From positions 1 through 40,588 of the forward strand of contig VBAY01000047.1 in assembly GCA_005883085.1 (NCBI GenBank): 40,588 nt of DNA, read 5' to 3'. This DNA is from Candidatus Bathyarchaeota archaeon (GTDB lineage Archaea; Thermoproteota; Bathyarchaeia; 40CM-2-53-6). Within the stretch, counting starts at the first letter, position 1. Each line of letters opens with the position of its first letter. Below are positions 16,750 to 40,588 of the stretch, one piece after another. The notes under the pieces were generated by a model. It had not been told where the DNA came from. It made no database searches and saw nothing but the letters and a program-made list of their open reading frames with translations. Both the position numbers and the translations under genes were made by a program.

Positions 16750-17296
16750 TTTGAGGCTTGCCGTTGGGTTTAGCAGTCGTATCCGCCTAGCGGATAGGCT
16801 GAACCGCAGCCTGCTGTGCTAGCCGGTGTGAGAGTTGCTGAACCCTCGTGCAGTGTTGGTGGGAACGAGGCTATGCCTGTTGGTGGAGTAGTGGGCCAAG
16901 CGAACGGCTGGACCCAGTTGACGCCCACGAATCTCGACACGATGCCGATCTGTGGAACATCAACCTTTGTAGCTGCTCCGTTAACATCACCGCCTATACC
17001 CTGCTGCCAGTGACCGCAGCCCGTAGAGCCACCTGTCACCGCTTGCCCGACACACCGGGCGACAACGCTGAAGTTGATGAAGTCATGTGTGAAGTCGCCG
17101 TTGTTACCAGACCAGGCCCAGAGAGCCAGAGCACCGTTGCTGTGGAAGTACGAGTCGGTCAAAGACGAGCCCGGCGCATGACCTAGACCATACCGCGCCA
17201 GAGTGTAGCTGCCCCCAATATCAGGGTTCTGAGTTCCATCGGCCTTGGAATCGCATCCAACACCTCTAACTCCGGTGGAAGACTGGCACACCCAAG
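16750..17296. repeat. 547-bp direct repeat, copy 1 (3' end of SBP gene plus ~20 bp downstream)
   Basis: Identical by eye to 19693-20239; the antisense shadow ORFs in two other frames are also identical between copies. Confidence 0.9.
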
Positions 17297-19695: not shown

Positions 19696-20239
19696 GAGGC
19701 TTGCCGTTGGGTTTAGCAGTCGTATCCGCCTAGCGGATAGGCTGAACCGCAGCCTGCTGTGCTAGCCGGTGTGAGAGTTGCTGAACCCTCGTGCAGTGTT
19801 GGTGGGAACGAGGCTATGCCTGTTGGTGGAGTAGTGGGCCAAGCGAACGGCTGGACCCAGTTGACGCCCACGAATCTCGACACGATGCCGATCTGTGGAA
19901 CATCAACCTTTGTAGCTGCTCCGTTAACATCACCGCCTATACCCTGCTGCCAGTGACCGCAGCCCGTAGAGCCACCTGTCACCGCTTGCCCGACACACCG
20001 GGCGACAACGCTGAAGTTGATGAAGTCATGTGTGAAGTCGCCGTTGTTACCAGACCAGGCCCAGAGAGCCAGAGCACCGTTGCTGTGGAAGTACGAGTCG
20101 GTCAAAGACGAGCCCGGCGCATGACCTAGACCATACCGCGCCAGAGTGTAGCTGCCCCCAATATCAGGGTTCTGAGTTCCATCGGCCTTGGAATCGCATC
20201 CAACACCTCTAACTCCGGTGGAAGACTGGCACACCCAAG
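19693..20239. repeat. 547-bp direct repeat, copy 2
   Basis: Identical by eye to 16750-17296 (offset 2943). Confidence 0.9.
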
Positions 20240-22444: not shown

Positions 22445-23806
22445 TTATGGCAGGTCGGTGTCCAAAGGGCGCTTTCTCAAGAAACGGGATCCCGCAATAC
22501 CGGCTCCAACTAAAACAAGAAGTGAGATCCCAGCAGACGGGAGGAGGCTCAAGCTTAGGCCCGCAGGCAACGGAGATACTAGCTGAACAAAGATTGATTT
22601 GAGATTATTAGTTAAGACATCTTCGATGATGTTGCTATAGTTCCCGGGCTTTCTCACGTAATCCACGAAAGCATCAATGCGATAGACTCTCGGGCTGTAT
22701 TTGTCTGTCTTCCACTGGGCCGTGAATTCCTTTCGGTTAGTCGGGAGCAGGCCGTGAAAAGTTGTGTTTCCAATGAGGCGCCCCTCCACGCTTATGGTCA
22801 AATTCGCCTCTTCAGTCCTTGTTCCGTTGTTCAAAACCCGCGCAGTGACCGAAATAATAGTGCCTGGTATGACTCCAGCGTCATCGTTAACTGTCGCCGA
22901 GTCAACGGCCAAATCAATCAGATTGTTGATTACAATGATACGCTTGGTCTTGGATGCTGAAACCCCGTAGCTGTCGTCTGCTCTGACAGTGACGTAATAC
23001 GGTTTCCCAATGCTGTAGACGTGGATTATCGTTGCGTTTGAACCCTGCTGGCTTGGATCCGGGTTTCCCCAAATCCAATAATAGTTACTAATAGATCCGC
23101 CCGAGTTCGTGGATCGAGCGGACGCGTTGAAGATGAGCACTCTACCTTGGAGCAGTTCGTTGCCGGTTATCGCAAGGTCAGCGGGAGTGGGGGATACTGT
23201 AAAGTCAACGATAGGTGGAGTGCATGGTGTGCCTGACGTAGGAGGGCAGTCGATATTGGTGAAATACCCGTCAGAGCTAACGGAAGGCAATTCTGTCTGG
23301 TCTAATCCAGCAGTCAAGGTTGCCGAGCGAAAGTGAATCTCGGAGAACCCGCTTCCGAGAATGTCGAATGTCACGTCGAAAAGTTTTCCGCTGGTTGGTG
23401 GCATTGTCGTTGCGGTGAGCAATACGAGCCCGAGAGCGACTACTCCTGCCTGGTCTTCCCCGCCGCATGCTGGCCCATGAGTATCTACGCAATCTCGCAC
23501 CACTGTTGGCTTGCATGAATCGGCTCCCGATGGGCAGAGAACGTTGCCACCATAATCGAGGCCACCAGGTGGCAGAACAGCGCGAAGCACGAGAATGTTG
23601 TATGTAAGCACGACCGCAAAACCATTGATTGCAGGGGCGTCCGTTACATTCACAGTGAACGTAACCTGTCCTGCGGTCTCTCCTAGGAGGAACTGGTTTG
23701 GAGGATTTATCGCGATTTTAGCAGAATCCGCAGCGTGCGCTTGCGGTGTCCCCGGAAACAAGTGGCCGAGGTATGGGTTGCTAGAGAGTGCTAGAATCAT
23801 GATCAT
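22445..23806 (-). CDS. Membrane-anchored scaffold: signal peptide, cohesin-like domain, PKD, CARDB-like Ig, C-terminal TM
   Basis: PQAHA cleavage site. Cohesin-like FTVNVTDAPAINGFAVVLTYNILVL...SGKLFDVTFDILGSGFSEIHF; PKD FNASARS...ISNYYWIWG...HVYS...YYVTVRADD; CARDB DLAVDS...VTARVLNNG...YRIDAFVD...NNL; TM plus RKRP tail. True start may be slightly upstream. Confidence 0.8.
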   Translation of the reverse strand: MIMILALSSNPYLGHLFPGTPQAHAADSAKIAINPPNQFLLGETAGQVTFTVNVTDAPAINGFAVVLTYNILVLRAVLPPGGLDYGGNVLCPSGADSCKPTVVRDCVDTHGPACGGEDQAGVVALGLVLLTATTMPPTSGKLFDVTFDILGSGFSEIHFRSATLTAGLDQTELPSVSSDGYFTNIDCPPTSGTPCTPPIVDFTVSPTPADLAITGNELLQGRVLIFNASARSTNSGGSISNYYWIWGNPDPSQQGSNATIIHVYSIGKPYYVTVRADDSYGVSASKTKRIIVINNLIDLAVDSATVNDDAGVIPGTIISVTARVLNNGTRTEEANLTISVEGRLIGNTTFHGLLPTNRKEFTAQWKTDKYSPRVYRIDAFVDYVRKPGNYSNIIEDVLTNNLKSIFVQLVSPLPAGLSLSLLPSAGISLLVLVGAGIAGSRFLRKRPLDTDLP

Positions 23807-23905
23807 GAGGGTGATGGAGGCTAGCCTTAGCTCTCTTACGCCAACGCTCGTTTCTGGCTCTCCACCGTCAGCTTTGATGATTCAAGGTCTGCAACGGCCG
23901 GGGGT

Positions 23906-23921
23906 CTTAAAAGTTTATCCC
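23906..23921 (-). promoter_or_regulatory. BRE/TATA promoter nearly identical to the SBP paralog promoter
   Basis: Minus strand GGGATAAACTTTTAAG versus GGGATAATCTTTTAAG at 22326-22341 (15 of 16 identical). Confidence 0.6.
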
Positions 23922-24043
23922 GAAAGAAAACTAGACGGATGAAATATTTTGATGGAGGTTTTCGTTTGACACGGGATTTTTCACGAGTCAATCTTTCCCC
24001 ACGAACTTGTAAGAGCGATTTTTCACAGACTACGGGGCGAGCC

Positions 24044-25729
24044 CTATGTTGTGATTCCGTAGTTCCGAGCCGCGACGCCCGCGTCTACGATGTCAACTAT
24101 GCCGTTACCGTTCAGATCGGCGTACGGGTTCCACCTCGAGCATCCGCAATTATGGCTGAACCCGTAGTCATAGAAGATGACTGATACGTCTATCAGGCTG
24201 ACGAGACCATCCTGGTCTATATCACCCAGGGGCAGGATCCAAACCTGGTTCGTGACACCCAAGGGGTCGTCCCCTCGGTTACCGACACTTTCTATCGGTA
24301 CTGTTACAGTTGCCGATAACGCGTAGCGGCCGGGTTTGAAGCCTGTAGTGTTCCAGCTGAAGACGACGCTTGTCGAGCCGCCGATAGCAACATTCCCGGC
24401 CAGCGTGCCGATACTGGAACTGGTAGTATTCATAGCGGTGAGAGTAACTGAGAACGACTCCACAAAATCTCCGGGGTTGCTCACGGTGACTGTGATATTC
24501 ACAACAGGGTTGGCATACTGAGGTACAGGAGCGTACTTCAACGGTGTAGGATATTTCTTGCATGGCTGCGCGCAATTGAGAGGTGCGACGGTTGAGATCT
24601 TCACGTCATGGACCGGGGAGACAGGACTGGAATTCAGCGCCCAGATATCAAAGTCCACAGCGTTAGGACGATCTGAACGGATGAACACCCAGATAGACTT
24701 GTCAGTTGGGGTATTTGACTGAATCGCGGCGGGATTATCATCGTCAACAGGGTAGGCATCGTTCGTTATCTGTGATTCAGTGGACCAAGTACTGCCATTG
24801 TTAGTAGAAAACTTGCTGTAGATCGCCCAGGCCTCCTGATTCACTGGACCCTGAAGCCTCGCCCAGAACAGCCAGATAGTCCCGTTTCGATCCTGCATGA
24901 TCGACGGATGAGCATCAGGCATTGAAGAAGAGACGACCTGTGATTCCGTCCCCCATATTGCCCCATTGTAGGAGTTGTAGAACAGCTGAGAGTTGCTTTC
25001 CGCAGTCGCGCGCTCTTCCCAGACGAGCCTTAGAATCCCATCCTTGCCAACCATCACAGAGGAGCCGTCGTTCAAACTAGTATTAGTCGTCAGCTTCGTA
25101 TCCGGAGACCAAGCGCCATTCCTGACCGTCTTGTAGTACAGCTGATCTTTGAACGTACATGTTGTGGTGCAAGTTGTGTTCTGCCTACTCCAGAAGAGCC
25201 AGAGTGTACCATCTCTGGCCACAGTGGCTGATGGAGCCGTATCGTTGAGGTTGGTGGAAGTTAGCTGGATCCTATTCGACCAGAACTCGTTACCGTACTT
25301 GTCCACATGGTATTTTTCGTAGACGATCTTGTAGCTGTTCCCGATGAGTGAAGACCAGAACAAGATTACAGTGTCGTTGGCAAACTGGGCCAGCGCTGGG
25401 GAGGCATTGTTACCCGTCGAAAATAGATTCACGTTCGTTAAGTTAACTGGATTATTCCAGAGGCCCCCCGTTCGCGTCTTGTAGAAGATGTCGAATTTTG
25501 GAAAAGACTGGTTGAAACGACTTGACTGCCACGCCATCCAGAGGGTACCGTTCCTTGCTTGGAGAACGCTTGGAAGGAGATCCAGTCCAGGAGACTGATC
25601 GACCCGTGTCGGACCAGTCCACGTGTATGGTGGACTCGCACTAACCATATGGATAGACTCTGGAACAAGCGCTACTGAAAGGATTACGATGCTAATCGCT
25701 AGGAATGATGTCTTGCTGTTAGCTCCCAT
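24044..25729 (-). CDS. Secreted Asp-box (BNR-like) beta-propeller + CARDB-like Ig + C-terminal dockerin
   Basis: ATG 25729 (MGANSKTSFLAISIVILSVALV) downstream of TTATAA at ~25797-25802. Six blade repeats (PS...xxNGTLWxxW), Asp-box STNNGSTW, dockerin GDIDQDGLVSLIDVSVIFYDYG...WNPYADLNGNGIVDIVDAGVAARNYG (24047-24226). Confidence 0.85.
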   Translation of the reverse strand: MGANSKTSFLAISIVILSVALVPESIHMVSASPPYTWTGPTRVDQSPGLDLLPSVLQARNGTLWMAWQSSRFNQSFPKFDIFYKTRTGGLWNNPVNLTNVNLFSTGNNASPALAQFANDTVILFWSSLIGNSYKIVYEKYHVDKYGNEFWSNRIQLTSTNLNDTAPSATVARDGTLWLFWSRQNTTCTTTCTFKDQLYYKTVRNGAWSPDTKLTTNTSLNDGSSVMVGKDGILRLVWEERATAESNSQLFYNSYNGAIWGTESQVVSSSMPDAHPSIMQDRNGTIWLFWARLQGPVNQEAWAIYSKFSTNNGSTWSTESQITNDAYPVDDDNPAAIQSNTPTDKSIWVFIRSDRPNAVDFDIWALNSSPVSPVHDVKISTVAPLNCAQPCKKYPTPLKYAPVPQYANPVVNITVTVSNPGDFVESFSVTLTAMNTTSSSIGTLAGNVAIGGSTSVVFSWNTTGFKPGRYALSATVTVPIESVGNRGDDPLGVTNQVWILPLGDIDQDGLVSLIDVSVIFYDYGFSHNCGCSRWNPYADLNGNGIVDIVDAGVAARNYGITT

Positions 25730-25902
25730 ATTGTGATCACTTCTGTGGGGAAACCTCGCCGATAAGCGCAACCAGCTCAGGATTTCTTTACACAACTTAT
25801 AAGACTTCCTTGAATTGGAGACGCGTCCGGATAGATGTCGTGCTCTCTGGCAGTATGTTTGTTGCTGGAGGTTGAACCGGTTATATCGTGCGGAAACAAC
25901 TC

Positions 25903-25932
25903 TGAGGAGAAGAAAAGAAAGAGGGGATTTGA
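25903..25932 (-). terminator. Pyrimidine-rich terminator candidate
   Basis: Minus strand AAATCCCCTCTTTCTTTTCTTCTCCTC shortly after the stop at 25951. Confidence 0.5.
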
Positions 25933-25950
25933 AACTCGTTACGGGACTTG

Positions 25951-28458
25951 CTAACTCGTGACTGTAAGTGTGCCGCTGCTCGGGACGTTGCCTAGTACGC
26001 TAGAGGCTGTGAGTGCTGTGGCTGTCAAGCCGTACTGAATCATTGCAGAATAGCTGTATCTTGTGCCGAGGGTACTAGCAGGGAGCGCCGCGGAGAACGC
26101 GAGGTTACTGATGGACTGTCCTGGAAGCAACTGTACCACTATCGATGTAGCTGTGAAAGTCTTTGTGCCTGTAGAGTCGATTCCGATGACCTGGATGCTC
26201 ACGAACAGTGTTGTCGCAGTGTCGAAATTCGTGATTCCAGCTTTGGAGGTGTAGATGCCATTATCTCTGCTGAGTGATACCTTGTGCACTGGCACGAACT
26301 GGATGAACTGTGGTGACGCTGGTACGTGGACGGTCGCGGTCGTGGTGTGCGTTATAGGTCCCGCAATCCCAGTGACGCTAGCAATGTAGTCGCCGGCTGG
26401 GGTTTGAGGTGTTACCCGTACAGTGAGGGTCGTGTGGTTGGGGGTGAAGACGTCTATGAATGTTTGACGCACGGGCACTGAAGCGATAGGGCCGTAGACT
26501 CCACAGTCCGCACATGTACGGACACCGTTGGGGAAGATTATGGTCTGTGGTACCCGTGTTCCGTTGGGGAAGTACACTTGGACGAGGCGGAGCTGCGGGT
26601 TACCCGGAAGCTGTGGGACACGTGTTCTCTCTGGATTTGTGGCGCCGAGGTATGCAACTCCGTTGAACCCGATTTGGAAGTTGGTTGCCGCGAAGCCTCC
26701 GAGACTGGCCAAGTTGATCGTTGAGGTCGCGGGAGTTCCAGGTATGACCGTGAGAGCGGTAGTAACTAGGTGTATCGAAAAGTCGCCTAGTGCGATTGTC
26801 AAGAAGACTCGGTGGGTTATGCTACCGCTGGTAACGCTGATGACGACAGTATAGTTGCCTAGCGCTGAGTTGGCGGTCGTCTCGACCGATAATGTCGAGA
26901 ACACGACGCCGCCTGCGGTCAGCGTAGCTGTCGCGGGGTCGAACCTGGTTACAAGTACGGTTGAGCATGGCGAACAATTGGCCGGTGTATTGGTCCCAGT
27001 TGGAATGACTGTTGCGGAGAAGGTTAGTGGGCCTGCGAATGTTGTTGCGCTGGAGACTTTGATTCCGGAACTCGCGCTTAGACTGGCAAAGGTGATAATG
27101 TGATCTGGGATAGCAGCGAGGTTGAAGTCAGTGCCCGTGATGACAAACGTAACGTCAACGGTATTGGTCACGCCTGCGCTTGTGGCGGTGACTGTGATGT
27201 CATAGGCTGCAAAGTCGGCGGTTGTCGGGATGGTGATTGTCAGGGTGGCTGTGGTGGTTCCGTACGCCGAGAGGGTGACGGAGGCAGGGCTGACAGCGCT
27301 TGTGGGACCGTTAATGTTGACCGCAGTGCTGAATGATATAGTGTCTGCGAAAGCGCTTATGCTGGTGAGGGTAAGGGTGGATGTGCTTGATCCTCCGATG
27401 GGTATGATGAGACCGTTCGCGGGGCTCGCGCTAATGGAAAAGTCTTGTGGAGTGTCCTGGACAACGACGTTTTGGCTATGACTTACTCCAACGGAGCTGG
27501 TCCCGGTCGCCGTTATGACGAAGGTGGGGAATAATAGAATGTCGCCGCCGTTCACGTCAAAGCCGGGGGTCGGATCTGGGGCTGGGCCCGCGGTTAGAGT
27601 GGCCGTAGCCATTCCATTAGCGGGGAGGAAGAGGCTTGGCACGCTGAGCGATACTGCGATAGGTGGTACGGTGGTGCTGCCGATTGGATTGCCGTCCGCG
27701 TCGAAGCTTGGCGGATTGGCGCCTACGCCTGACACAGCGTTAAGGCCGATGGTGTCGGTGAAGCCAGCTTGACTAGTGAGTGTGATGGTGAAGGCGAAGC
27801 TGGAACCTGGCGCAACTGTGGTTGAGTCGGGGGTTACTGCAAAGTTGTAGTCCGCGCCGTGCATGAAGGTGGCCTCCTGAATCGAGACGGGAACTGGAGG
27901 GGCCCCGGGGACACCGTTCGCGATTGTCACACAGACATCTGGGCCTACGCTTGTGCCCGAGCAGCCTGTGTTGAAGAAGATCGGTGTACCGTCTGAGCCG
28001 GCTAGGACTTTGAACACTGCAGTGAACAGTAACCCGTTGGTTGGCGGTGTTGTAGTGGCACCTGCCGTATTGACGGCGGCAAGGTGTACTACTCCGTCAG
28101 CGTCTTGTGGAGCGCATGATGAGCCAGCTTGTAGCAAGCCGTTGATGCAAATGACCAGTGCGCTGAAAGGAATGATGCTGCCTGTGAGATCCGCGCTGAC
28201 CCCGGTGAGGATCGTGGGATCGCTTCTAACCTGAATGTCAAACCCGTTAAGGGCGTCTACTCCTGAAGCTCGAACAGCTATTCTGAGCAAGCCTCCAGGG
28301 GCTTGGTCTAGTGTTGGTGGAAGTGCAGGGCATCCGGTTGTTGATGGATCTGCGAGACATATTTGGCCCGCTGCGTGGGCGTTTGGTATTGCTGGTACGA
28401 CGAATAGGCTTGTAAGTAGCATCAATGGTATGAGGATTACTTTTTCAAGTTTTTTCAA
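25951..28458 (-). CDS. Secreted scaffold: cohesin-like domain + about four Ig-like repeats + conserved C-terminal beta-domain, no TM
   Basis: Signal peptide ending PNAHA; cohesin-like DALNGFDIQVRSDPTIL...TNGLLFTAVFKVLAGSDGTPIFF; repeats of D(F/Y)xxxxxP...STxTLTS...F...GxYxxxVTxTSG; C-terminal domain homologous to that of the giant protein. Confidence 0.82.
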   Translation of the reverse strand: MKKLEKVILIPLMLLTSLFVVPAIPNAHAAGQICLADPSTTGCPALPPTLDQAPGGLLRIAVRASGVDALNGFDIQVRSDPTILTGVSADLTGSIIPFSALVICINGLLQAGSSCAPQDADGVVHLAAVNTAGATTTPPTNGLLFTAVFKVLAGSDGTPIFFNTGCSGTSVGPDVCVTIANGVPGAPPVPVSIQEATFMHGADYNFAVTPDSTTVAPGSSFAFTITLTSQAGFTDTIGLNAVSGVGANPPSFDADGNPIGSTTVPPIAVSLSVPSLFLPANGMATATLTAGPAPDPTPGFDVNGGDILLFPTFVITATGTSSVGVSHSQNVVVQDTPQDFSISASPANGLIIPIGGSSTSTLTLTSISAFADTISFSTAVNINGPTSAVSPASVTLSAYGTTTATLTITIPTTADFAAYDITVTATSAGVTNTVDVTFVITGTDFNLAAIPDHIITFASLSASSGIKVSSATTFAGPLTFSATVIPTGTNTPANCSPCSTVLVTRFDPATATLTAGGVVFSTLSVETTANSALGNYTVVISVTSGSITHRVFLTIALGDFSIHLVTTALTVIPGTPATSTINLASLGGFAATNFQIGFNGVAYLGATNPERTRVPQLPGNPQLRLVQVYFPNGTRVPQTIIFPNGVRTCADCGVYGPIASVPVRQTFIDVFTPNHTTLTVRVTPQTPAGDYIASVTGIAGPITHTTTATVHVPASPQFIQFVPVHKVSLSRDNGIYTSKAGITNFDTATTLFVSIQVIGIDSTGTKTFTATSIVVQLLPGQSISNLAFSAALPASTLGTRYSYSAMIQYGLTATALTASSVLGNVPSSGTLTVTS

Positions 28459-28699
28459 TACGTATTACCCGTTTTTCCTGCGTGCTTATCGGCATCCACT
28501 CGATATAAGAGTTTTCGATATGTGTATCCTCGTTTATAGCCATGAGACACTTGAGATTGAGGTAGACTTCCCAAGTATTCTTGAAATATACGATCGGTAA
28601 ACAGGCCTGCCTCGAAACGGGCTTGGATGGGGAATCAAGATCGTTTCCGGTAAGATCGAACAGGGGCTTTGTATCGCCGATCTTTTCATGGTCTGGGGG

Positions 28700-30319
28700 C
28701 TAGGACTTGGTTCCAAATGCTCGGGCCGCTATACTGACGTCGATGATGTCGATGATGCCGTTGTTGTTGATGTCACAGTGAGGGTCCCATCGCGAAGGAG
28801 TGGCGGGTGTGAATCCGAAATCATAGAAGAACACTGCTACATCAATAATGGTGACTGAGCCGTCTTGGTCAATGTCCCCCAAGGGAATTACGTGGGTAAC
28901 CCTGGTGAATGTGACATTATTGTCAGCCTGGTTGGGGACTGTCTCGCCAGGAACTGGACTGACGTAGGCGGCGACCGAGTACCATGCGGGCTTCCAGTTG
29001 GTCGTATTCATGCTGAACGATAGATTGACTGTGCCTCCGGGTACTGCAAGGTTCTGCTTCGTTACAGAGTTGTAGGAGCTAGAGTTGTATACGGTGAGGG
29101 CAGCTGTTACTATTTCGCTCTGGTCGCCACGATTAAGGATGGTCGCGGTGAATGAGACGATGGCGCTTTGGCCGATTGACGCGAGCCCGCCTGGGTATTC
29201 GATCTGCGTCGACGGGGTAACCGATGTAATTGTTACATCGTGTATTGGCTGTATCGGGCTGGATATTAGCGCGTAAATGTCCTCGTTTGAGACGGGGTTC
29301 GTTGTGTAGAAGAGCCAGATGGACTTGTTGTAAGTGGACTGGACGCCATATGGCTGCATACTGTCAACACTGGTCGAAGTGTTTGTCATCTGGATTTCTG
29401 CGGACCAGGTTGTGCCGCTGTTGTAGGAGTATTTGGAGTAGAGGAGGTAGTAGAAGGAGAGGCCACTGTAGTAGTGCTTCCTCGACCAGAAGAGCCACAT
29501 TGTCCCGTTCCGATCCTGCATAATCGCGGCATGCTCGTCGGAATCAGTCGAGGCGACAACCTTGGTCTCCGCACTCCAGCCCGCTCCGTTGTATGTCCTG
29601 TAGTATACCTGGTAATTCTCGAGAGATCCTAATCCTTTCGACCAGACTACTCTTACAATGTTGTCTTTGCCAACCGTTATGCCGGAGCCCCAGTTCTGGT
29701 TCGTGTCCGAGGTCAGCTTCGTTTCTGTGGACCAGACTCCTGCTTTCAAGGTCTTGTAGTAGAGCTGTTTAGCAGGATCAGTACAAGAGCCGCTGCAGGT
29801 CGAGTTATTCCTTGTCCAGACGAGCCAGAGAGTCCCATCCCTACCAACAGCAGCGGAGGGATTCGTATCGTTGAGAGATGTGCTCGACGCTTGTAGAGGA
29901 TTTGACCATCCTCCAGGACTGTTGTACATCTTGTAGTAGATGAGATAGCTGGCTGCAGGCTTGTACGCCCAGAAAAGCAGGATAGTTCCGTTCGATAACT
30001 GCGCTAGCGCTGCACCCGCGTTTATCCCACCAGTTGTTAGCCGCGATACTGTCGACCAGACCCCGTTTGTGTACGTCTTGTAGGAGATATCGTACTGGGA
30101 GTCTCCTCTGTACCTGTTCGTTTGCCAAGCCAGCCACATGGTCCCGTTGCTGGCTTGGAGACCTGCGTTCAAAATATTGATTCCCGCGTTGTTCTCGATC
30201 GCCGTAGGGCTTCCCCAAAGGGTAGTGGCAGTGACAGGGTGGAACACCAGCGGGAGAAAGACTAGTCCGGCCACAGACAATAGGACTAGGCAAAGTCCCC
30301 GAAGCGATCGCTTCGTCAA
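28700..30319 (-). CDS. Second secreted Asp-box beta-propeller + CARDB-like Ig + dockerin protein
   Basis: Paralog of 24044-25729 (LNDTxPSAxVxRDGTLWLxW, QDRNGTxWLFW, SYNSGTTW); dockerin GDIDQDGSVTIIDVAVFFYDFG...WDPHCDINNNGIIDIIDVSIAARAFG (28703-28879). Confidence 0.85.
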   Translation of the reverse strand: MTKRSLRGLCLVLLSVAGLVFLPLVFHPVTATTLWGSPTAIENNAGINILNAGLQASNGTMWLAWQTNRYRGDSQYDISYKTYTNGVWSTVSRLTTGGINAGAALAQLSNGTILLFWAYKPAASYLIYYKMYNSPGGWSNPLQASSTSLNDTNPSAAVGRDGTLWLVWTRNNSTCSGSCTDPAKQLYYKTLKAGVWSTETKLTSDTNQNWGSGITVGKDNIVRVVWSKGLGSLENYQVYYRTYNGAGWSAETKVVASTDSDEHAAIMQDRNGTMWLFWSRKHYYSGLSFYYLLYSKYSYNSGTTWSAEIQMTNTSTSVDSMQPYGVQSTYNKSIWLFYTTNPVSNEDIYALISSPIQPIHDVTITSVTPSTQIEYPGGLASIGQSAIVSFTATILNRGDQSEIVTAALTVYNSSSYNSVTKQNLAVPGGTVNLSFSMNTTNWKPAWYSVAAYVSPVPGETVPNQADNNVTFTRVTHVIPLGDIDQDGSVTIIDVAVFFYDFGFTPATPSRWDPHCDINNNGIIDIIDVSIAARAFGTKS

Positions 30320-30417
30320 GCCTTCGCTAGTCCCCTAGCAAATCTCGGATTGCTTCACTGTGGCAGAATGGAAAAGATCAATGATACGGAGATGGTGCGT
30401 GGAGTATGACATGATTC

Positions 30418-30453
30418 TAATAAAACAAAGAAGGGAGTTGGAGGGGGGTTTTG
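30418..30453 (-). terminator. Pyrimidine-rich terminator candidate after the giant gene
   Basis: Minus strand AAAACCCCCCTCCAACTCCCTTCTTTGTTTTATT just after the stop at 30465. Confidence 0.5.
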
Positions 30454-30464
30454 GCTTTGCCGTT

Positions 30465-33400
30465 CTACGCGAGTATGGTGAAGCTTCCGCTAGTTCGGAC
30501 GAAGCCGATGGCCGCTGTGCTCTGTTGTGTTAGCGATGTCGGGCTGGTGCCCCAGAGTATCACCATCTGGAAACTGAACGACCTGCCAATGTCCGCGTTG
30601 GTGAACGTCTTCGTCAGGATCAGGTTGGTCAGCAATTGATTTGGCGCGAGAGTGATCACTGATGATGTCAGGGTGAAGGGTACAAAGCCGGCTCCGTCGA
30701 CCACGTTGATCTGTACTTGGGCATAGACGGTTGTGCTGGGATCGGTGTTTTGCAGGCCGAATCTCCATTGCTGCTGGAAGTTATTCTTGGAAAGTTGCAG
30801 GCGCTGCTTCCAGTTGCTCTGGCCAAACGCTGGTGCTGACACCTGTGCACCGCTTACCGTCACATTGACGTTGGTGGAGTGCGTTATTGTCCCGCTCGTG
30901 CCTGTCACGGTCACGATGTAGGTGCCGTTTAGTGAACCCATTACGGTGAGGGTGCTTGAGCCAGACATCATTATACTTGTTGGGCTGAGGGAGGCTGTGA
31001 GTCCCGTGGATGGATTGACGGTGGCCGTTAGGCTGACTGTGCCGCTGAATCCGTTGATGGGGGTGATGGTGATCGTTGAGGTTCCGGTTCCGCCGACGGA
31101 TATGGTGAATGAGGCTGGGCTGGCTGTTATGGTGAAGTCGGGTGTCGTGACATGCAGTGTAATTACTGCGGTTGTGTGGGAGAGCAAGCCGCTAGTCCCT
31201 GTTACGGTGACGGTGTAGTCGCCGTTCGCCGCTGCACTGAGGGATAGGGTTGTGCTGTCGAACCCGCTTGAGAGGACGAGGACGCTCTTGCCGAGAGTGG
31301 CGGTTAGGCCGGCTGACGGGCTTGTCGTAAGCGAGACACTGCCTGCAAATCCGTTGACACTACTTGCGGATATCGGTGTCGTGCATGTTACACCTGGAGT
31401 ACAGTTGACTGTTACCGCCGCGGAGGGTGAAATTGTGAAGTCGTTGAAGTTGAACGTCGCCGTCGCGGAGTGGCTGAGGCTTCCACTGGTGGCCGTGATT
31501 GCAACACTGAACGTGCCGGCTGACGTCGACTTGCATGATACGGTCGAGGTCTGCGGGGACGGTGGCAGTGTTACGCTGGAAGGTGTTACTGAGCAGACAA
31601 GCGGTGCTAGAGCTGTGGCAGAGAGTGTTACAGCTCCTGCAAACCCATTGAGACCGGTGACGGTGACCGTGGAGGACGCGGTTGTGGTCCCATCGGCTGG
31701 AGCCGCGGCTGGCGCGGACGCGCTAATCGTGAAGTCGACCACATGGAATAGGATTGCGGAAGTGGTGTGGGTTAGACCGCCGCTTGTTCCTGTTACGGTG
31801 ACGGTGTAGTCACCAGCAGTTGCAGCGGAGCATGAGAGTGTCGAGGTCTGCGGAGATGTTCCGAAGGTCACACTGGTGGGTGTCAAACCGCATAGTAGAC
31901 CTGTTGGTGTTGAGGCGGACACGGAGAGGTTGACTGTTCCTGTGAAGCTTCCGATAGAAGTTACCGTTATTGTTGAGGTGCCAGAGGCGCCTGCAAGTAT
32001 CTGGGAGGGAGTGACTGCGCTAGCTGAGATGCTGAAGTCCTGTCCTCCGGGTGACACTGCGACGATGACCGTTCGGGTCAGAGTTCCGCTTGTGCCAGTG
32101 ATTGTGACGCTGAAGCTGACGGCACCCGTACATCCCGCAGTTAGGGTTGCGGCGTTAGGTGTTGGGAGAGTGACAGAGGCGGGGGATATGGTGGCTGTGC
32201 ATCCAGCTGGAACGACCGATGTGACGGCTAGCGAGATGCTTCCAGTGAATCCGTTGAGGGCGTTCGCGGATATCGTAGAGGTGCCCGTGTTAGGTGCAGT
32301 GTAGCTGATGCTGGAGGGACTTGAGGTTAGAGTGAAATCGGTTACATGGAAGAGAATTGTTGCCGTCATATGAGATAATGTTCCGTCAGTTCCGGTTACG
32401 ATGACAGTGTAGTCACCTGCTGTTGCTGCGGAGCAGCTCAAGGTTGCTGTTTGTGGGGATGTGCCGAAGGTTACGCTAGCTGGCAACGTGCATGTTAATC
32501 CTGCAGGGGTAGATGCGGATACCGCGAGATTGACGGTTCCGGTCAGGCCATTAATCGCCGTTACGGTGATCGTTGAGGTGCCAGACGCTCCGACCAGTAT
32601 CTGGGTTGGCGATACTGCGCCTGAGGCGATTGTGAAGTCAACGACGTGGAAGAGAATCGAGGCGGTGGTGTGACTCAAGGTTCCATCGGTACCAGTTACT
32701 GTAACGGTGTATTGGCCTGCTGTTGTTGCGGAGCAACTAAGCGTAGCAGTCTGAGGCGATGAGCCGAATGTCACACTCGCCGGGAGGGTGCATGTCAAAC
32801 CGGCCGGAGTGGATGCTGATACTGCAAGTATTGGCCTGCCGTTGTGGCGCTGCATGATAGTGTCGCGGTCTGTGGCGAAGTGCCGAATGTTACGCTGGCG
32901 GGTAGAGTGCAGGTTAGACCCGCAGGTGTAGAAGCGGACACTGCAAGATTGACAGTGCCGGTTAGACCGTTGACCGCCGTTACGGTGATGGTTGAGGCGC
33001 CGGACCCGCCTGCGAGTATCTGTGTTGGGGATACGGCTCCTGCTGCGATTGCAAAGTCAACCACATGGAATAGGATTGCGAAAGTAGTCTGGGTTATGCT
33101 GCCGCTTGTTCCTGTTACGGTGACGGTGTAGTCACCAGCAGTTGCAGCGGAGCATGAGAGTGTCGAGGTCTGCGGAGATGTTCCGAAGGTCACACTGGTG
33201 GGTGTCAAACCGCATAGTAGACCTGCAGGTGTTGAGGCAGACACTGACAGATTGACCGTTCCTGTAAAGCCTCCTTGGGCGGTCAGCGTTATTGTCGATG
33301 TTCCAGACGCACCTGCCAGGATCTGGGAGGGAGTAACAGCACTGGCGGCGATAGTGAAGGTCTGTCCTCCGGGTGATACCGAGATAGTGACGGTTCGGGT

Positions 33401-36400
33401 CAGAGTTCCGCTTGTGCCAGTGATTGTGACGCTGAAGCTGATGGCACTCGTACATCCCGCAGTTAGGGTTGCAGTGTTAGGCGTTGGAAGGGTGACGGAG
33501 GCTGGCGAGATCGTGGCTGTGCATCCAGCTGGAACAACCGATGTAACGGCCAACGAGATGCTGCCGGTGAAGCCGTTGAGAGCGTTCGCGGTTATTGTGG
33601 AAGTGCTTGTGTTGGGCGCAGTGTAGGTTATACTGGCTGGACTCGAGGTTAGGTTGAAGTCGGTTACATGGAAGAGGATTGTTGCCGTTGTATGACTGAG
33701 CGTTCCGTCAGTTCCGGCTACGGTGACTGTGTAGTCTCCTGCCGCTGATGCCGTGCACGAGAGTGTCGCAGTCTGCGGAGAAGTTCCGAAGGTGACACTA
33801 GCTGGTAACGTGCATGTCAGACCCGCGGGTGTAGATGCGGACACTGCTAGGTTCACAGTACCAGTCAAACCATTGACCGCGGTTACTGTGACAGTTGAGG
33901 TTCCAGAAGATCCCACTAGGATCTGTGTTGGTGAAACCGCTCCCGCTGCGATCGTGAAGTCTACAACATGGAAGAGAATTGTTCCTGTTGTATGAGTAAG
34001 TGTTCCATCAGTTCCAGTCACTGTTACGGTGTAATCGCCCGCTGACGCTGCGGTGCAGGACAGTGTTGCTGTCTGTGGAGATGTTCCAAATGTGACGCTA
34101 GCCGGGAGGGTGCATGTCAAACCGGCCGGAGTGGATGCTGATACTGCGAGATTGACAGTTCCCGTTAGACCGTTGACTGCTGTGACTGTGATCGTTGAGG
34201 CTCCGGAGCCGCCTGCGAGTATCTGTGTTGGAGATACTGCGCCCGCTGCAATCGTAAAGTCGACAACATGGAACAGTATTGTTCCAGTTGTGTGACTCAA
34301 CGTACCGTCTGTTCCTGTAACAGTTACTGTGTAATCACCTGCGGAGGCCGCACTGCACGACAATGTTGCGGTTTGCGGCGAGGTTCCGAAAGTGACGCTT
34401 GCCGGGAGAGTGCAGGTTAGTCCAGCAGGTGTGGACGCAGATACTGCGAGGTTAACAGTTCCAGTCAGCCCGTTGAGGGCGGTGACGGTTATGGTCGATG
34501 TGCCGGATGCTCCAGCGAATATCTGGGCTGGCAGGACTGCGCCTGCGGCAATTGTGAAGTCGACGACATGGAAGAGTATGGCAGATGTAGTGTGGCTTAG
34601 AGCGCCGCTTGTTCCTGTTACGGTAACAGTGTAATCGCCAGCAGTAGCGCTGCATGATAGTGTCGCGGTCTGTGGAGAAGTTCCGAAAGTGACACTCGTC
34701 GGTGCTAGGGAGCATATTAGACCGGCAGGTGTCGACGCGGACACTGCGAGGTTCACGGTGCCGGTGAATCCGTTCAATGCAGTGAGGGTGATCGTGGAGG
34801 TTCCTGACGAGCCTGCGAGAATCTGGGTTGGGGTGACAGCACTTGCAGCGATGGTGAAGTCGGCTCCTGGACTGACCGGTACAGTTACGGTTCGGGTCAG
34901 AGTTCCGCTTGTGCCAGTGATTGTAACGCTGAAGCTGATGGCACTAGTGCAGCCCGCTGTCAGAGTCGCAGTGTTAGGTGTTGGAAGGGTGACGGAGGCT
35001 GGCGAGATCGTGGCTGTGCATCCAGCTGGAACGACCGATGTGACGGCTAGCGAGATGCTTCCAGTGAATCCGTTCTGAGCATTAGCAGTTATCGTGGAGG
35101 TCCCTGTGTTGGGTGGAGTGTAGGTAATGGTGGTTGGGCTCGCGGTAATGGTGAAGGCGGTCACGTGGAACAGAATCGATGCGGTCGTGTGCGATAATGT
35201 TCCATCTGTTCCTGTGACTGTTACGGTATAATCAGCTGCATTAGCAGCAGAGCAAGACAATGTTGCTGTCTGCGGCGAGGTTCCGAAAGTGACGCTGGCG
35301 GGTAGAGTGCAGGTTAGACCTGCGGGGGTGGAGGCGGAAACTGCGAGACTAACTGTGCCGGTCAAACCATTGACCGCAGTCACAGTGATAGTCGAGGTTC
35401 CGGAGGCCCCGGCGAGGATCTGGGCGGGACTAACAGCTCCGGCAGCAATGGTGAAGTCAACGACGTGGAAGAGAATTGTCGCTGTCGTGTGAGTGAGAGT
35501 TCCATCAGTACCAGTTACTGTGACAGTGTAGTCACCCGCAGCAGTTGCGCTGCATGACAATGTTGCGGTCTGTGGAGATGTTCCGAAGGTGACACTAGCT
35601 GGTAACGTGCATGTTAGACCTGCGGGTGTAGAGGCGGATACCGCAAGGTTGACAGTGCCTGTAAGACCGTTCACAGCGGTCACTGTTATCGTAGAGGTTC
35701 CGGAGGAACCGGCTAGTATCTGGGTTGGCGATACTGCGCCTGCGGCAATTGTGAAGTCAACGACGTGGAAGAGAATCGAGGCGGTGGTGTGACTCAAGGT
35801 TCCATCGGTACCAGTTACTGTAACGGTGTATTGGCCTGCTGTTGTTGCGGAGCAACTAAGCGTAGCAGTCTGAGGCGATGAGCCGAATGTCACACTCGCC
35901 GGGAGGGTGCATGTCAAACCGGCCGGAGTGGATGCTGATACTGCAACGGCGGTGCATGATAGTGTCGCGGTCTGTGGGGAAGTGCCGAATGTTACGCTGG
36001 CAGGGAGAGTGCAGGTTAGTCCCGCTGGGGTCGAAGCGGATACTGCTAGGTTCACGGTGCCTGTGAACCCGTTCACCGCTGTTACGGTAATTGTCGAGGT
36101 TCCTGATGCTCCGGCTAGAATCTGGGAAGGAGCAACTGCTCCAGCGGCGATGGTATAGTCTACTACATGGAATAGGATTGTGCCTGTAGTGTGGGTTAGA
36201 GTGCCGCTTGTACCCGTAGCAGTGACGGTATAGTCACCTGCTGCTGATGCACTGCACGATAGTGTCGAGGTTTGCGGGGAAGTTCCGAAAGTGACACTCG
36301 TCGGTGCTAGGGAGCATGTTAGACCGGCAGGTGTCGACGCGGACACTGCGAGGTTCACGGTGCCGGTGAATCCGTTCAGTGCGGTTAAGGTGATCGTGGA

Positions 36401-39400
36401 GGTTCCAGAAGATCCAGCAAGGATCTGGGCAGGGCTGACAGCGCCTGCAGCTATGCTAAAGTCGGCTTGCGGCGTGAACGTGACGGTGACTGTGCGGGTC
36501 AGACTGCCGCTCGTGCCGCTTACTGTGACCGTGAAGGTGACTGAGCAGCTTCCGGCTGTTAGTGTTGCGGTGTTGGGTGTTGGAAGAGTGACGGTTGACG
36601 GGGATATTGTATTCGTGCAACCAGAGGGTGGAGTCGAGGTGATTGTTAGGGCGATGCTTCCAGTGAAGCCGTTCTGAGCGTTCGCGGTTATAGTGGAAGT
36701 GGAGGTGCCTGGCGGAGTGAAGCTGACTGTTGAGGGGTTGGCAGTAAGGGTGAAGGCAACTACGTGGAATAGAATTGTTGTTGTAGTGTGTGTTAGGGTT
36801 CCATCGGTTCCAGTTACTGTGACAGTATAGTCGCCTGCGTTTGCAGCACTACACGACAGTGTAGCGGTCTGCGGTGAGGTTCCGAAGGTGACACTAGCGG
36901 GTAGAGTGCAGGTTAGTCCTGCGGGTGTGGATACTGATACCGCAAGATTGACAGTTCCTGTCAGGCCGTTGAGAGCTGTTACAGTGATTATCGAGGTTCC
37001 GGAGGCTCCTGCAAATATCTGCGCAGGAGATACCGCGCCTGCTGCAATCGTAAAGTCGACAACATGGAAGAGAATCGTCGCGGTGGTGTGGCTTAGGGTT
37101 CCATCAGTTCCGGTTACCGTAACCGTGTAGTCTCCTGCTGCTGCAGCTGTGCATGAGAGGGTTGCAGTCTGCGGAGAAGTTCCGAATGTGACACTGCCTG
37201 GGAGGGTGCATGTCAAGCCAGCTGGAGTGGAAGCAGATACTGCTAGGTTTACTGTCCCGGTTAGACCGTTCAGCGCGGTTACAGTGATTGTCGAGGTCCC
37301 GGAGCTGCCGGCGAATATCTGGGCTGGGCTAACTGCTCCGGCAGCAATCGAAAAGTCAACAACATGGAATAGTATATTGGCAGTAGTGTGAGAGCGAGTT
37401 CCGACACTCCCAGTGACTGTTACTGTGTAATCACCGGCGGTTGCGGCACTGCATGACAGTGTCGCGGTCTGGGGCGATGTACCGAATGTGACACTCGCGG
37501 GGAGGGTGCAGGTCAATCCGGCTGGAGTGGAGACGGAAACTGCGAGGTTGACAGCGCCAGTCAGTCCATTGACTGCTGTGACTGTGATAGTGGAGGTTCC
37601 AGAAGCACCAGCAAGTATCTGTGTCGGTGATACCGCTCCGGCTGCAATCGTAAAGTCGACAACATGGAAGAGAATCGTCGCGGTGGTGTGGCTTAGGGTT
37701 CCATCAGTTCCAGTTACGGTAACGGTGTAGTCACCCGCTGTCGCGGCGCTACAAGATAGTGTGGCTGTCTGTGGAGACGTGCCAAACGTCACACTTGCTG
37801 GAAGAGTGCATGTCAAACCGGCTGGAGTGGAGGCGGAAACTGCAAGGTTAACTGTACCGGTTAAGCCGTTGACAGCAGTTACTGTAATCGTTGAGGTTCC
37901 TGAAGCAGCCGCTAGTATCTGAGCCGGGGACACTGCTCCCGCAGCGATGGTGAAATCAACAACGTGGAAGAGAATCGTCGCAGTCGTATGAGTGAGAGTT
38001 CCATCGGTTCCAGTTACTGTGACAGTATAGTCGCCTGCAGCAGTTGCAGAGCAACTCAATGTCGCAGTCTGAGGCGAAGTTCCGAAAGTAACGCTAGCAG
38101 GTAAGGTGCACGTAAGACCTGCGGGTGTCGAGGCCGAGACCGCAAGATTCACAGTACCAGTCAGGCCGTTCAGCGCTGTTACGGTGATCGTGGACGTTCC
38201 GGAGCTGCCCGCGAAAATCTGCGCAGGCGAAACTGCTCCTGCGGCGATCGAGAAGTCTACCACGTGGAAGAGGATGGTTGCAGTGGTGTGACTGAGGGTT
38301 CCGTCGGTACCCGTGACAGTGACAGTGTAGTCAGCTGCTGTCGAGGCGCTGCATGATAGTGTCGCTGTTTGTGGGGATGTTCCGAATGTTACGCTGGCAG
38401 GGAGAGTGCAGGTTAGTCCCGCTGGGGTCGAAGCGGATACTGCTAGGTTGACGGTGCCAGTTAGACCGTTGAGAGCTGTAACAGTCACAGTTGAGGTCCC
38501 GGATGAACCAGCTAGTATCGTGGCAGGACTCACTGCACCGGCAGCGATGGTGAAGTCTACTACGTGGAAGAGAATCGCCGCGGTAGTGTGGGTGCGAGCG
38601 CCATCAGTGCCTGTTACAGTTACTGTATAGTCGCCTGCAGCAGTTGCAGAGCAACTCAATGTCGCAGTCTGAGGCGAAGTTCCGAAAGTAACACTGGCAG
38701 GCAGAGTGCATGTCAAGCCAGCTGGAGTGGAAGCTGACACCGACAATCCAACTGCTCCTGTCAGTCCATTGACTGCTGTGACTGTGATAGTGGAGGTTCC
38801 AGAAGCACCAGCAAGTATCTGTGTTGGTGATACCGCGCCTGCTGCAATCGTAAAGTCGACAACATGGAAGAGGATCGTCGCGGTGGTGTGGCTTAGGGTT
38901 CCATCAGTTCCAGTTACCGTTACGGTATAGTCGGCCGCGTTAGCGGCGCTGCAGCTGAGAGTCGCGGTCTGAGGCGATGTACCGAATGTCACACTCGCTG
39001 GAAGGGTGCAGGTTAGGCCTGCGGGTGTGGATGCAGATACTGCTAGGTTGACCGTACCAGTCAAGCCGTTCAACGCAGTTACAGTAATAGTTGACGTGCC
39101 TGAGGATCCTGCGAGAATCTGGGCCGGAGATACTGCTCCAGCAGCGATGCTGAAGTCTACAACATGGAAGAGGATCGTTGCTGTCGTATGACTGAGGGTC
39201 GCGTCTGTTCCCGTAACGGTTACGGTATAATCGGCCGCTGCTGCGGCGCTGCAGGATAATGTCGCTGTCTGTGGGGATGTTCCGAATGTTACGCTGGCAG
39301 GTAGAGTGCATGTCAAGCCAGCAGGGGTGGATGCTGATACCGCGAGATTGACCGTTCCGGTCAGACCATTCAACGCTGTTACAGTAATAGTTGACGTGCC

Positions 39401-40588
39401 TGAAGAGCCCGCTAGTATCTGAGTTGGTGATACTGCCCCGGCTGCGATCGTGAAGTCAACTACATGGAAGAGAATTGCTGCGGTCGTCTTAGTGCGAGCT
39501 CCATCTGTACCGGTGACAGTTACCGTGTAGTCGCCCGCGGTCGCCGCGCTACAGGATAGTGTAGCAGTCTGAGGCGAAGTGCCGAAGGTCACGTTGGGTA
39601 CGGTGCACGTTAGACCTGCAGGAGTGGAGGCAGAAGCCGCGAGGCTTACAGTTCCGGTCAATCCATTGACGGCTGTGACCGTGATCGTGGATGTTCCAGA
39701 TGCTCCAGCTAGTATCTGGGCTGGGGACACGGCGCCCGCAGCGATATTGAAGTCGACTACGTGGAAGAGGATTGTCGCGGTAGTGTGGCTTAGAGTTCCG
39801 TCAGTTCCAGTTACGGTTACGGTGTAGTCAGCTGCTGCGGCTGCACTGCATGACAATGTGGCAGTCTGTGGCGATGTCCCGAATGTAACGCTGGCAGGCA
39901 AGGTGCATGTCAAGCCGGCCGGAGTAGAGACAGACACCGCAAGGTTGACCGTGCCGGTCAAGCCGTTCAACGCTGTAACAGTTATTGTCGAAGTGCCAGA
40001 AGATCCGGCCAGTATCTGGGTAGGTGATACAGCTCCGGCGGAGATGCTGAAGTCTACAACATGGAAGAGAATCGTTGCTGTCGTATGACTAAGGGTCGCG
40101 TCTGTTCCTGTAACAGTCACGGTGTAGTCGCCTGCTGCCGCTGCAGAGCAGCTCAATGTGGCAGTCTGAGGTGAAGTTCCGAAGGTAACACTTGCTGGAA
40201 GAGTGCATGTTAGTCCTGCAGGTGTGGAAACTGATACTGCGAGATTGACAGTTCCGGTCAATCCGTTCAGCGCTGTGACGGTTATTGTGGACGTTCCAGA
40301 GCTGCCCGCGAAAATCTGGGTTGGACTAACCACTCCGGCTGCAATGCTGAAGTCTACAACATGGAACAGGATCGCGGCAGTAGTGTGAGACAACGCAGCA
40401 TTGGTGCCTGTAACCGTGACAGTGTAGTCACCCGCAACCGTCGCGCTGCAGGATAGTGTCGCAGTCTGGGGCGATGTTCCGAATGTTACGCTAGGAGGTA
40501 GAGTGCAGGTTAGACCCGCAGGCGTAGACGCGGAAACCGACAGGTTCACCGTGCCCGAGTAGCCAGTCGCACCCGCTGTAACTGTGAT
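30465..40588 (-). CDS. Giant surface protein of about 33 tandem ~100-aa Ig-like modules plus a C-terminal beta-domain (5'-truncated by window; one frameshift at ~32828, probably an assembly artefact)
   Basis: Frame open from base 40588 (ITVTAGATGYSGTVNLSV...). ORFs 32795-40549 and 30465-32855 carry the same repeat DFTIAAGAVSPTQILAGxSGTSTITVTAxNGLTGTVNLAVSASTPAGLTCTLPASVTFGTSPQTATLSCSAxxAGDYTVTVTGTDGTLSHTTATILFHVV. Confidence 0.88.
31740..40588. repeat. Coding tandem repeat array with ~300-bp period and a higher-order ~1.5-kb unit
   Basis: The FHVVD codon block recurs at 300-bp multiples (e.g. acatggaagag near 37062, 37662, 38862). Variant B modules lie at ~32045-32340, ~33365-33660, ~34864-35160 and ~36467-36758. 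Confidence 0.92.

Follow-up and report, generated by a model that had tools for sequence, protein, structure and literature searches.

Two large, putatively secreted proteins encoded on a contig of an uncultured archaeon (Candidatus Bathyarchaeota archaeon, assembly GCA_005883085.1, contig VBAY01000047.1) end in the same kind of domain, and this C-terminal domain (CTD) is the subject of the present analysis. The window, that is, the whole stretch of DNA that was analyzed, comprises 40,588 nucleotides, and all of the genes of its stalk cluster are on the minus strand. The shorter protein, P0001 (835 amino acids [aa]; 25951..28458), was resolved by translation and hidden Markov model (HMM) matches into a signal peptide, an N-terminal cohesin (27880..28380; residues 27-193 of the protein by the cohesin HMM), a stalk of immunoglobulin (Ig)-like domains, and the CTD (25954..26331; residues ~710-835, with the CTD HMM matching residues 710-834 at an E value of 1e-34). 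The gene for the second, giant repeat protein is represented by two frames: a 3' open reading frame (ORF) for P0002 (796 aa; 30465..32855), whose translation consists of Ig-like repeats and the CTD (30468..30848; two-sequence profile E value, 5.4e-70; CTD HMM, residues 670-795 of P0002), and a 5' part (2597 aa; 32795..40588) that consists of ~94-aa tandem Ig-like repeats and continues beyond the contig. The gene immediately downstream of the giant one encodes P0004 (28700..30319), which has a signal peptide, a BNR-like beta-propeller (PROP HMM, 1e-130), a CARDB-like domain, and a dockerin (DOCK HMM, 8e-32). P0005, encoded directly downstream of P0001 (24044..25795), has the same architecture (PROP HMM, 5e-132; DOCK HMM, 2e-29). 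P0006 (22445..23806) carries a cohesin (cohesin HMM, 1.7e-84), PKD and CARDB domains that fall just under the curated Pfam cutoffs, a C-terminal transmembrane helix, and a basic tail; the 19-residue Kyte-Doolittle mean (KD19) of the helix is 2.03 at residue 419.

The last ~150 residues of P0001 and the giant protein share 49 identities in 149 positions (33%; BLASTP E value, 5e-23), and the CTDs alone are 29% identical over 127 columns. This likeness is far beyond chance, and the two domains are homologous. A C-terminal domain common to both stalk proteins had been proposed in a preliminary description of this DNA; the domain is real (E value, 5e-23), and both its position and the peptides read from it were correct. 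The absence of a transmembrane helix, a PGF-CTERM motif, or a dockerin at either C terminus, claimed in the same description, also held when KD19, the terminal sequences, and a dockerin HMM were used. P0001 ends in ...SGTLTVTS and the giant protein in ...SGSFTILA, with C-terminal KD19 values of ≤1.0; past the signal peptide, KD19 peaked at 1.91 in P0001, at a site within the cohesin, and at 1.75-1.81 in the two parts of the giant. The dockerin HMM, which was built from the neighboring genes, matched P0004, P0005, and three other frames of the source genome and no CTD protein. A profile of the two window copies found exactly three places in the source genome (78% complete, 287 contigs), the third being on contig C58 (E value, 1.7e-25), where a 621-aa protein is composed of an N-terminal cohesin, a PKD domain, two Ig-like domains, and a CTD at its end. 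No further or internal copy was found in the source genome with a 38-sequence HMM and all filters off, the next best match being a 95-aa frame with an E value of 0.16.

The N-terminal domains of P0001, the C58 protein, and P0006 are cohesins. Their joint profile matched the solved cohesins of ScaB (PDB 3l8q_A; 3.6e-11) and SdbA (2bm3_A; 3.5e-5), and the solved cohesins matched in this way are type II. Structural matches in the Atlas were also cohesins (TM-scores of 0.64-0.70); Pfam's own cohesin model did not match P0001. The dockerin of P0004 reached a Pfam Dockerin_1 E value of 7.4e-4 with 20.1 bits when scored alone and 24.7 bits, which is over the cutoff, when scored with its neighbors. 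The propeller of P0005 matched BNR_2 at 5.2e-6, under the curated cutoff. With cohesin carriers and dockerin partners both present, the locus reads as a cohesin-dockerin system.

The CTD was modeled with AlphaFold2 from a 38-sequence alignment (A3) as a 10-strand beta-sandwich of 126 residues, with a predicted local distance difference test score (pLDDT) of 97.3, a predicted TM-score of 0.87, and five models that were alike. This model replaced an earlier one made from 3 sequences (pLDDT, 76.5), and as modeled the CTD is an Ig-like (E-set-like) beta-sandwich. A structure search, which had been suggested along with the preliminary description, returned Ig-like likeness at the level of the fold only. 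The best Foldseek match in the PDB was PapD (E value, 8.3e-4; TM-score, 0.41), and the matches listed, with query TM-scores of 0.38-0.62, were PapD, FaeE, complement C3 domains, HAP2 domain 3, a FixG-related structure, and TRAP. Exhaustive comparison with VIA-align placed the Ig-like domain of a GH2 protein (7cwd_A) at the top (Z score, 11.1; root mean square deviation, 3.8 Å over 113 residues), with further matches to HAP2 domain III (Z scores, 10.0 and 9.7), RbmA (9.9), and TRAP-beta (9.7). The series ran smoothly to a Z score of 8.2 at rank 50, and 59 of the 48,161 chains scored ≥8. The GH2 Ig-like second domain, HAP2 domain III, RbmA FnIII, TRAP-beta, and the PapD/MSP-like sandwiches thus have a fold like that of the CTD, with sequence identities of 7-15% that permit no functional inference.

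Neither a Pfam-A nor an NCBIfam family matches the CTD, in agreement with its initial characterization as unrecognized. In Pfam, nothing was significant for the 38 members (FixG_C matched 2 of 38, with a best E value of 7.4e-4, and CARDB matched 1 of 38), and in NCBIfam nothing fell below 0.002; the best E value of the CTD profile against PDB sequences was 1.1. A homology search with residues 705-835 of P0001 recovered its own cluster and one weak match only, and cluster members were annotated as nothing beyond "hypothetical protein." Most of the known modules that were considered could be rejected. Assignment to CARDB (PF07705) failed on a best E value of 0.013 in 1 of 38 members and an hhalign probability of 13% against the neighbors' CARDB-like domain; the probability against the giant's own Ig repeat was 11%. 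The SLH domain, a helical module of ~55 residues that usually occurs in triplets, was not among the 25 shown of the 30 Pfam families with E values of ≤1, and the CTD model is all beta. A type I or II dockerin was rejected because the DOCK HMM matched no CTD protein, and PGF-CTERM because the C-terminal sequences, with KD19 values of ≤1.0, contain neither the motif nor a transmembrane helix; no exosortase/archaeosortase family match (PF09721) was found in the 78%-complete source genome. Por_Secre_tail was not among the Pfam families listed for the 38 members (the type IX secretion machinery itself was not searched for). No carbohydrate-binding module (CBM) family appeared in the Pfam listing for the 38 members or among the top 50 structural matches, and there is no invariant aromatic residue. 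PF28202 (SlaA-like; score, 0.88) came up as a lead in the Atlas and would be a possible link to S-layer protein domains. The CTD is a new, autonomous Ig-like domain family; full-text literature searches returned no description of it, and on such searches only it is not in print.

When 1,835,955,588 representatives were searched with a three-sequence profile, the CTD was found in 148 proteins at an E value of ≤1e-3, in 91 at ≤1e-10, and in 11 at ≤1e-30. It was present exactly once in each of the 148. No more than 5 residues followed the aligned end of the CTD in 132 representatives; 6-15 residues followed in 10, 16-30 in 3, and >30 in the remaining 3, two of which are partial alignments and one of which (P0123) has a real tail of ~33 residues. 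A hydrophobic C terminus was found in 0 of 148, the maximum KD19 in the last 40 residues being 1.6. All 31 matches of the A3 profile in genomes of the same family were at the 3' end of the frame; among them, G020:C45 is truncated where its contig stops, and G012:C62, in a 303-aa protein, is matched only in part. The expectation that profile hits would be strictly C-terminal and on proteins lacking a transmembrane helix was therefore borne out by both the representatives and the genome matches. The alternative that this is an ordinary internal Ig or CARDB domain with no positional bias was decided against by the lack of an internal copy in the source genome and of any significant Pfam CARDB or Ig match. 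With regard to the proposal that the carriers are secreted, 46 of the 148 have a signal-peptide-like N terminus, which agrees with it.

The sequence searches indicate a rare, lineage-restricted family. With the first profile, 11 of the 36 genomes sampled in the same family gave a CTD match, and none of 24 genomes in nine further families of the order did; full-length dockerin-propeller genes and cohesins were commoner, being present in 24 and 20, respectively, of the same 36 genomes. With A3, it was detected in 15 of 58 genomes of a wider family sample and, overall, in 16 of 59 genomes and 3 of 5 genera of the family: 13 of 21 plus the source genome in genus g1, 1 of 1 in g4, 1 of 3 in g2, 0 of 10 in g5, and 0 of 23 in g3, where many genomes are incomplete and a zero means "not found" rather than "absent." A 3915-aa protein of the related genome G006 ends in a divergent CTD-like sequence that the HMM misses. 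A lone 41-residue match of P0001 to a Streptomyces contig was discarded as spurious. Archaeal markers accompany the genes: TrmB is encoded in the window, and Alba adjoins the CTD gene of C58. AmoA gave no match in the source genome and none in the control genomes either, a result that carries no information.

The CTD is tied mainly to cohesins. Of the representatives that are N-terminally complete, meaning that they have a start-codon residue and a hydrophobic stretch, 36 of 46 carry a cohesin; the other ten comprise proteins with other passengers and four signal peptide-plus-CTD proteins. The complete giant of the relative G005 is 3870 aa long and consists of a signal peptide, a cohesin, repeats, and a CTD. 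In G017, a 2195-aa protein (G017:C135; L034 10014-16601) combines a signal peptide, three cohesins, and a CTD, and by its sequence it is a true multicohesin scaffoldin. A 960-aa member, P0042, has a glycine- and asparagine-rich repeat region that resembles a beta-helix by eye only.

Cohesin proteins lacking a CTD were found to end differently. In the loci compared, 13 of 22 cohesin proteins with a complete 3' end terminate in a CTD, with a maximum C-terminal KD19 of 1.1, and 7 of the 9 that lack a CTD end in a transmembrane-like segment (KD19, ≥2.0), two being unclear (1.6 and 1.3). In the source genome, four cohesin frames are complete at the 3' end, two of them having a CTD there and two a hydrophobic end. 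Five more run off contig ends (C53, C127, C153, C171, and C177), so that the source genome encodes at least 9 cohesin proteins; long repeat stalks probably break the assembly. The clearest pair is P0006 and the C58 protein, which are 46% identical over the first 279 aa (cohesin plus PKD; E value, 2e-71) and unrelated afterwards, with P0006 continuing as CARDB, transmembrane helix, and basic tail and the C58 protein as Ig, Ig, and CTD. Paralogues that have a transmembrane anchor in place of the CTD fit an anchoring role for the domain.

The giant gene is frame-broken in this assembly. Its 5' and 3' parts are in different frames with a 61-nt overlap (32795-32855), its N terminus is missing because it lies off the contig, and the two parts together give a stalk of at least 3390 aa. 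The upstream frame ends in ...SATTAGQY followed by LQYQHPLRPV and a stop codon, and in the downstream frame this DNA is translated as AVSASTPAGL..., so that one repeat unit is joined in its middle and out of frame. Further upstream, the 5' part contains an irregular but in-frame junction (...SCTAVAVSASTPAGL...). To judge from the sequence, the break looks like an assembly collapse among near-identical 94-aa repeats and not a true pseudogene.

DNA of the window is present in soil metagenomes of 16 studies. There is also a hint of transcription for P0001: in two metatranscriptome libraries from one study, assembled contigs, for which DNA carry-over is possible, span 25923-28376 and 25923-28413 and include the CTD. 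Both end 28 nt beyond the stop codon, at a T-rich tract (CTCTTTCTTTTCTTCTCC; 25905-25950, minus strand) that is possibly an archaeal terminator. A separate, monocistronic transcript for P0001 is weakly suggested by these ends.

In the direction of transcription, the order of genes in the window is giant, P0004, P0001, P0005, P0006, two SBP_bac_5 genes, and then Opp permeases and ATPases. The same order, whole or in part, was found in G005, G008, G013, G017, G019, G016, G021, and G011, and the conserved alternating order extends over positions 22445-32855 of the window and the corresponding loci L026-L034, L038, L039, L041, L045, and G011:C176. Two CTD genes alternate with two dockerin-propeller genes in G005, G008, and G017 and partly in G013 and G019. 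A dockerin-propeller gene directly follows the CTD gene in 16 of 26 assessable cases and does not in 10, C58 among the latter. Trees of 15 CTDs and their downstream propellers showed the same groups, for which linkage alone would suffice. Between a CTD gene and a dockerin-propeller gene of G013 lies a CARDB-dockerin fragment with two in-frame TAA stops (G013:C174:31010-31516; L026 12679-13035), probably a decayed duplicate.

The transport genes beyond P0006 (11250..22304, minus strand; Pfam) encode two 860-aa SBP_bac_5 binding proteins, followed by Opp-type permeases and ATPases. In the two ~860-aa solute-binding proteins (16770-19352 and 19713-22304, minus strand), the SBP_bac_5 match begins only at about residue 560; no Pfam family matched the ~550 N-terminal residues of either, and the dockerin HMM found no dockerin in them. 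A 188-aa ORF (16145-16711, minus strand) matches only positions 1-63 of the 184 in the BPD_transp_1 profile and is followed, after a 256-nt gap, by a 500-aa OppC-like gene. This ORF could represent an OppB-like permease that has been truncated or frame-shifted.

Taken together, these results point tentatively, with a probability of about 0.4, to the CTD as a non-covalent attachment module at the cell-proximal end of the stalk. This reading is based on the C-terminal position of the domain, the paralogues that end in a transmembrane helix, the membrane-anchored cohesin protein in the cluster, and the fact that surface fibers are generally anchored at their C-terminal end. Furthermore, no other kind of anchor was apparent: the 78%-complete genome gave no exosortase/archaeosortase match. 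In the mechanism that we infer for CTD binding, its partner, and the orientation of the stalk, the stalk protein would be exported by Sec and its N-terminal cohesin held out on the Ig-like repeats, where it would capture the dockerin-tagged BNR-propeller proteins encoded alongside. The CTD, as the last part to leave the membrane, would hold the stalk on the envelope through non-covalent protein-protein binding, in the place taken by the C-terminal transmembrane helix in paralogous cohesin proteins. Its receptor would be the S-layer, which is one candidate partner, or a membrane-bound receptor, and the assembly might serve substrate capture for the adjacent Opp-type ATP-binding cassette (ABC) importer. 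The envelope-anchoring role put forward in the preliminary description is thus partly supported.

Several observations weigh against such a role. The conserved residues of the CTD are structural only (Gly, Pro, Asn, and core hydrophobics), no column is invariant in 38 sequences, and the fold is generic, with no outstanding structural relative. The two CTDs present in one cell share only ~30% identity, which would be odd if both docked at one common site. The isoelectric points of the window copies are 9.2 and 10.4 and those of the family range from 4.1 to 10.5; basic charge was therefore dropped as a clue to anchoring, as it holds for the window's two CTDs and not for the family. Five proteins on short contigs (P0034, P0109, P0115, P0129, and P0137; 114-155 aa) contain nothing besides a signal-peptide-like N terminus and the CTD, which indicates that the domain need not anchor anything. 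In addition, cohesin proteins of 2101 aa (G006) and 2052 aa (G011) end in neither a CTD nor a transmembrane helix, so the system can do without an anchor. The stalk complex may also be freely released from the cell. In sequence detail, the last strand of the CTD is conserved as G-S/A-F-x-V, and the commonest Trp positions of the family are replaced in P0001 itself.

Conservation confined to structural positions would also fit a CTD that ended and stabilized the stalk, or joined stalks sideways, with no role in attachment. The resemblance to the Ig-like linkers of multidomain glycosidases, HAP2 domain III, and RbmA (Z scores, 9.7-11.1) favors such a cap or bundling element, as does its fast evolution, with a median terminal branch of 0.67 (0.65 for the propeller) and three branches of 2.0-3.1 where no propeller branch exceeds 1.5. 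However, a cap would not call for a separate family that stays single and C-terminal in all 148 proteins, whose stalk repeats differ, it would be unexpected alone behind a signal peptide, and the transmembrane-anchored paralogues manage without it. We therefore regard this possibility as unlikely. The stand-alone secreted proteins would fit a CTD that is a distal ligand- or substrate-binding module (a lectin, CBM-like module, or adhesin), with the cohesin end held and the CTD shown to a polymer or another cell. Beta-sandwiches at scaffoldin ends often bind carbohydrate, and BNR-like propellers together with an Opp-type ABC importer, with TrmB encoded close by, give the locus the look of one for glycan or peptide uptake. 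Nevertheless, a binding tip seems distinctly unlikely: when 38 members were scanned with Pfam, no CBM or lectin family appeared; the 50 best structural hits are linkers of the Ig-like kind rather than CBMs; and there is no conserved aromatic or polar site. Moreover, the dockerin proteins are secreted and have no transmembrane helix, so a stalk in that orientation would be left unanchored. A sorting or secretion tag that is removed, like the CTD of type IX secretion, once a machinery for export or attachment has recognized it would also be C-terminal, single copy, and a beta-sandwich with a conserved last strand on secreted carriers. This is very improbable, given that the range of cargo is narrow (cohesin proteins make up 36 of the 46 complete carriers), that Por_Secre_tail is absent from the families listed for 38 members, that no candidate machinery was seen in the cluster and no exosortase-family gene in the 78%-complete genome, and that all carriers already have Sec-type signal peptides.

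The gene order raises a further possibility, in which the dockerin protein encoded immediately downstream would bind the CTD through its propeller (or CARDB-like) part and insert its dockerin into the next cohesin. The transmembrane-anchored cohesin protein P0006 would bind the dockerin of P0005, the propeller of P0005 would bind the CTD of P0001, the cohesin of P0001 would bind the dockerin of P0004, and the propeller of P0004 would bind the CTD of the giant, which carries the last cohesin. The genes of the window alternate in exactly this manner, as do those of G005, G008, and G017 and, in part, those of G013 and G019; 16 of 26 CTD genes directly precede a dockerin-propeller gene, the three cohesin proteins and two dockerin proteins would use each module once, and the CTD and propeller trees show the same groups. 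Adjacency is more simply explained as classical cohesin-dockerin pairing of a stalk with its neighbor, though, and congruent trees follow from linked inheritance alone, while 10 of 26 CTD genes, including that of C58, have no dockerin-propeller neighbor. It thus seems improbable that the CTD acts as such an adaptor. The fuller version, in which the CTD is the socket of a second coupling that is not cohesin-dockerin and the five genes build one membrane-rooted chain (the transmembrane-anchored cohesin protein, a propeller, the 835-aa stalk, a propeller, and the >3400-aa stalk), several hundred nanometers long with a free cohesin at the tip, is quite improbable; if true, the five-gene chain would be a self-assembling archaeal surface fiber of an undescribed kind.

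If the CTD anchors stalks to the envelope non-covalently, it would correspond in archaea to the SLH or type II dockerin modules and would explain how uncultured soil archaea display giant (>3000-aa) cohesin stalks; only a few mechanisms are known by which archaea retain large non-membrane proteins at their surface, namely, transmembrane helices, lipid anchoring by the archaeosortase/PGF-CTERM route, and S-layer stalks. Should the CTD do no more than cap the stalk, it is a routine new domain family. In either case, the domain is small and modular with a confidently predicted fold, which makes it easy to test, and it could serve as a display tag.

In bacterial cellulosomes, the primary scaffoldin has a C-terminal type II dockerin with an X-module, and anchoring scaffoldins carry SLH domains. 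Like these scaffoldins (with a type II dockerin or, as in SdbA, SLH domains), the stalk proteins are cohesin-bearing, secreted scaffolds that have no transmembrane helix and end in a dedicated C-terminal module. Dockerin-tagged partners are encoded nearby in both cases, and the window cohesins are nearest to solved type II cohesins, including that of SdbA. In contrast, the CTD is a beta-sandwich and neither a dockerin nor an SLH domain, the host is archaeal, and the membrane link of the cluster is the transmembrane-anchored cohesin protein. The CTD of type IX secretion is likewise a small Ig-like beta-sandwich found only at the C terminus of Sec-exported surface proteins; the domain described here differs in having no sequence match to it, a narrow cargo, and an archaeal host.

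Fibrillar adhesins are bacterial and are anchored by LPXTG motifs, transmembrane segments, or secretion system retention modules, none of which occurs in the stalk proteins of the window. Nevertheless, the general plan is shared: a head, here the cohesin, is followed by near-identical Ig-like repeats that form a long stalk, and a terminal module of a distinct kind completes the protein. In fibrillar surface proteins, the stalk is reported to project a functional domain towards its target (PMC8286594, PMC9210967).

The nearest archaeal parallel is the cohesin-dockerin system of Archaeoglobus and the anaerobic methanotrophic (ANME) archaea, which is reported to have no obvious link to cellulose and to be tied to Opp-type binding proteins and transporters (PMC9012536). 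The scaffoldin-like proteins of ANME archaea are described as having a dockerin and up to 5 cohesins, with dockerins also on binding proteins (PMC9012536). In the stalks described here, a CTD replaces the dockerin; the dockerins of the window are on BNR-like propellers and not on the binding proteins. Earlier surveys are reported to have found no true multicohesin scaffoldins in archaea (PMC9012536), a statement with which the three-cohesin protein of G017 contrasts. Cohesin-dockerin surface assembly is thus a known kind of system that has been reported from ANME archaea too (PMC9012536), and the CTD is its new part.

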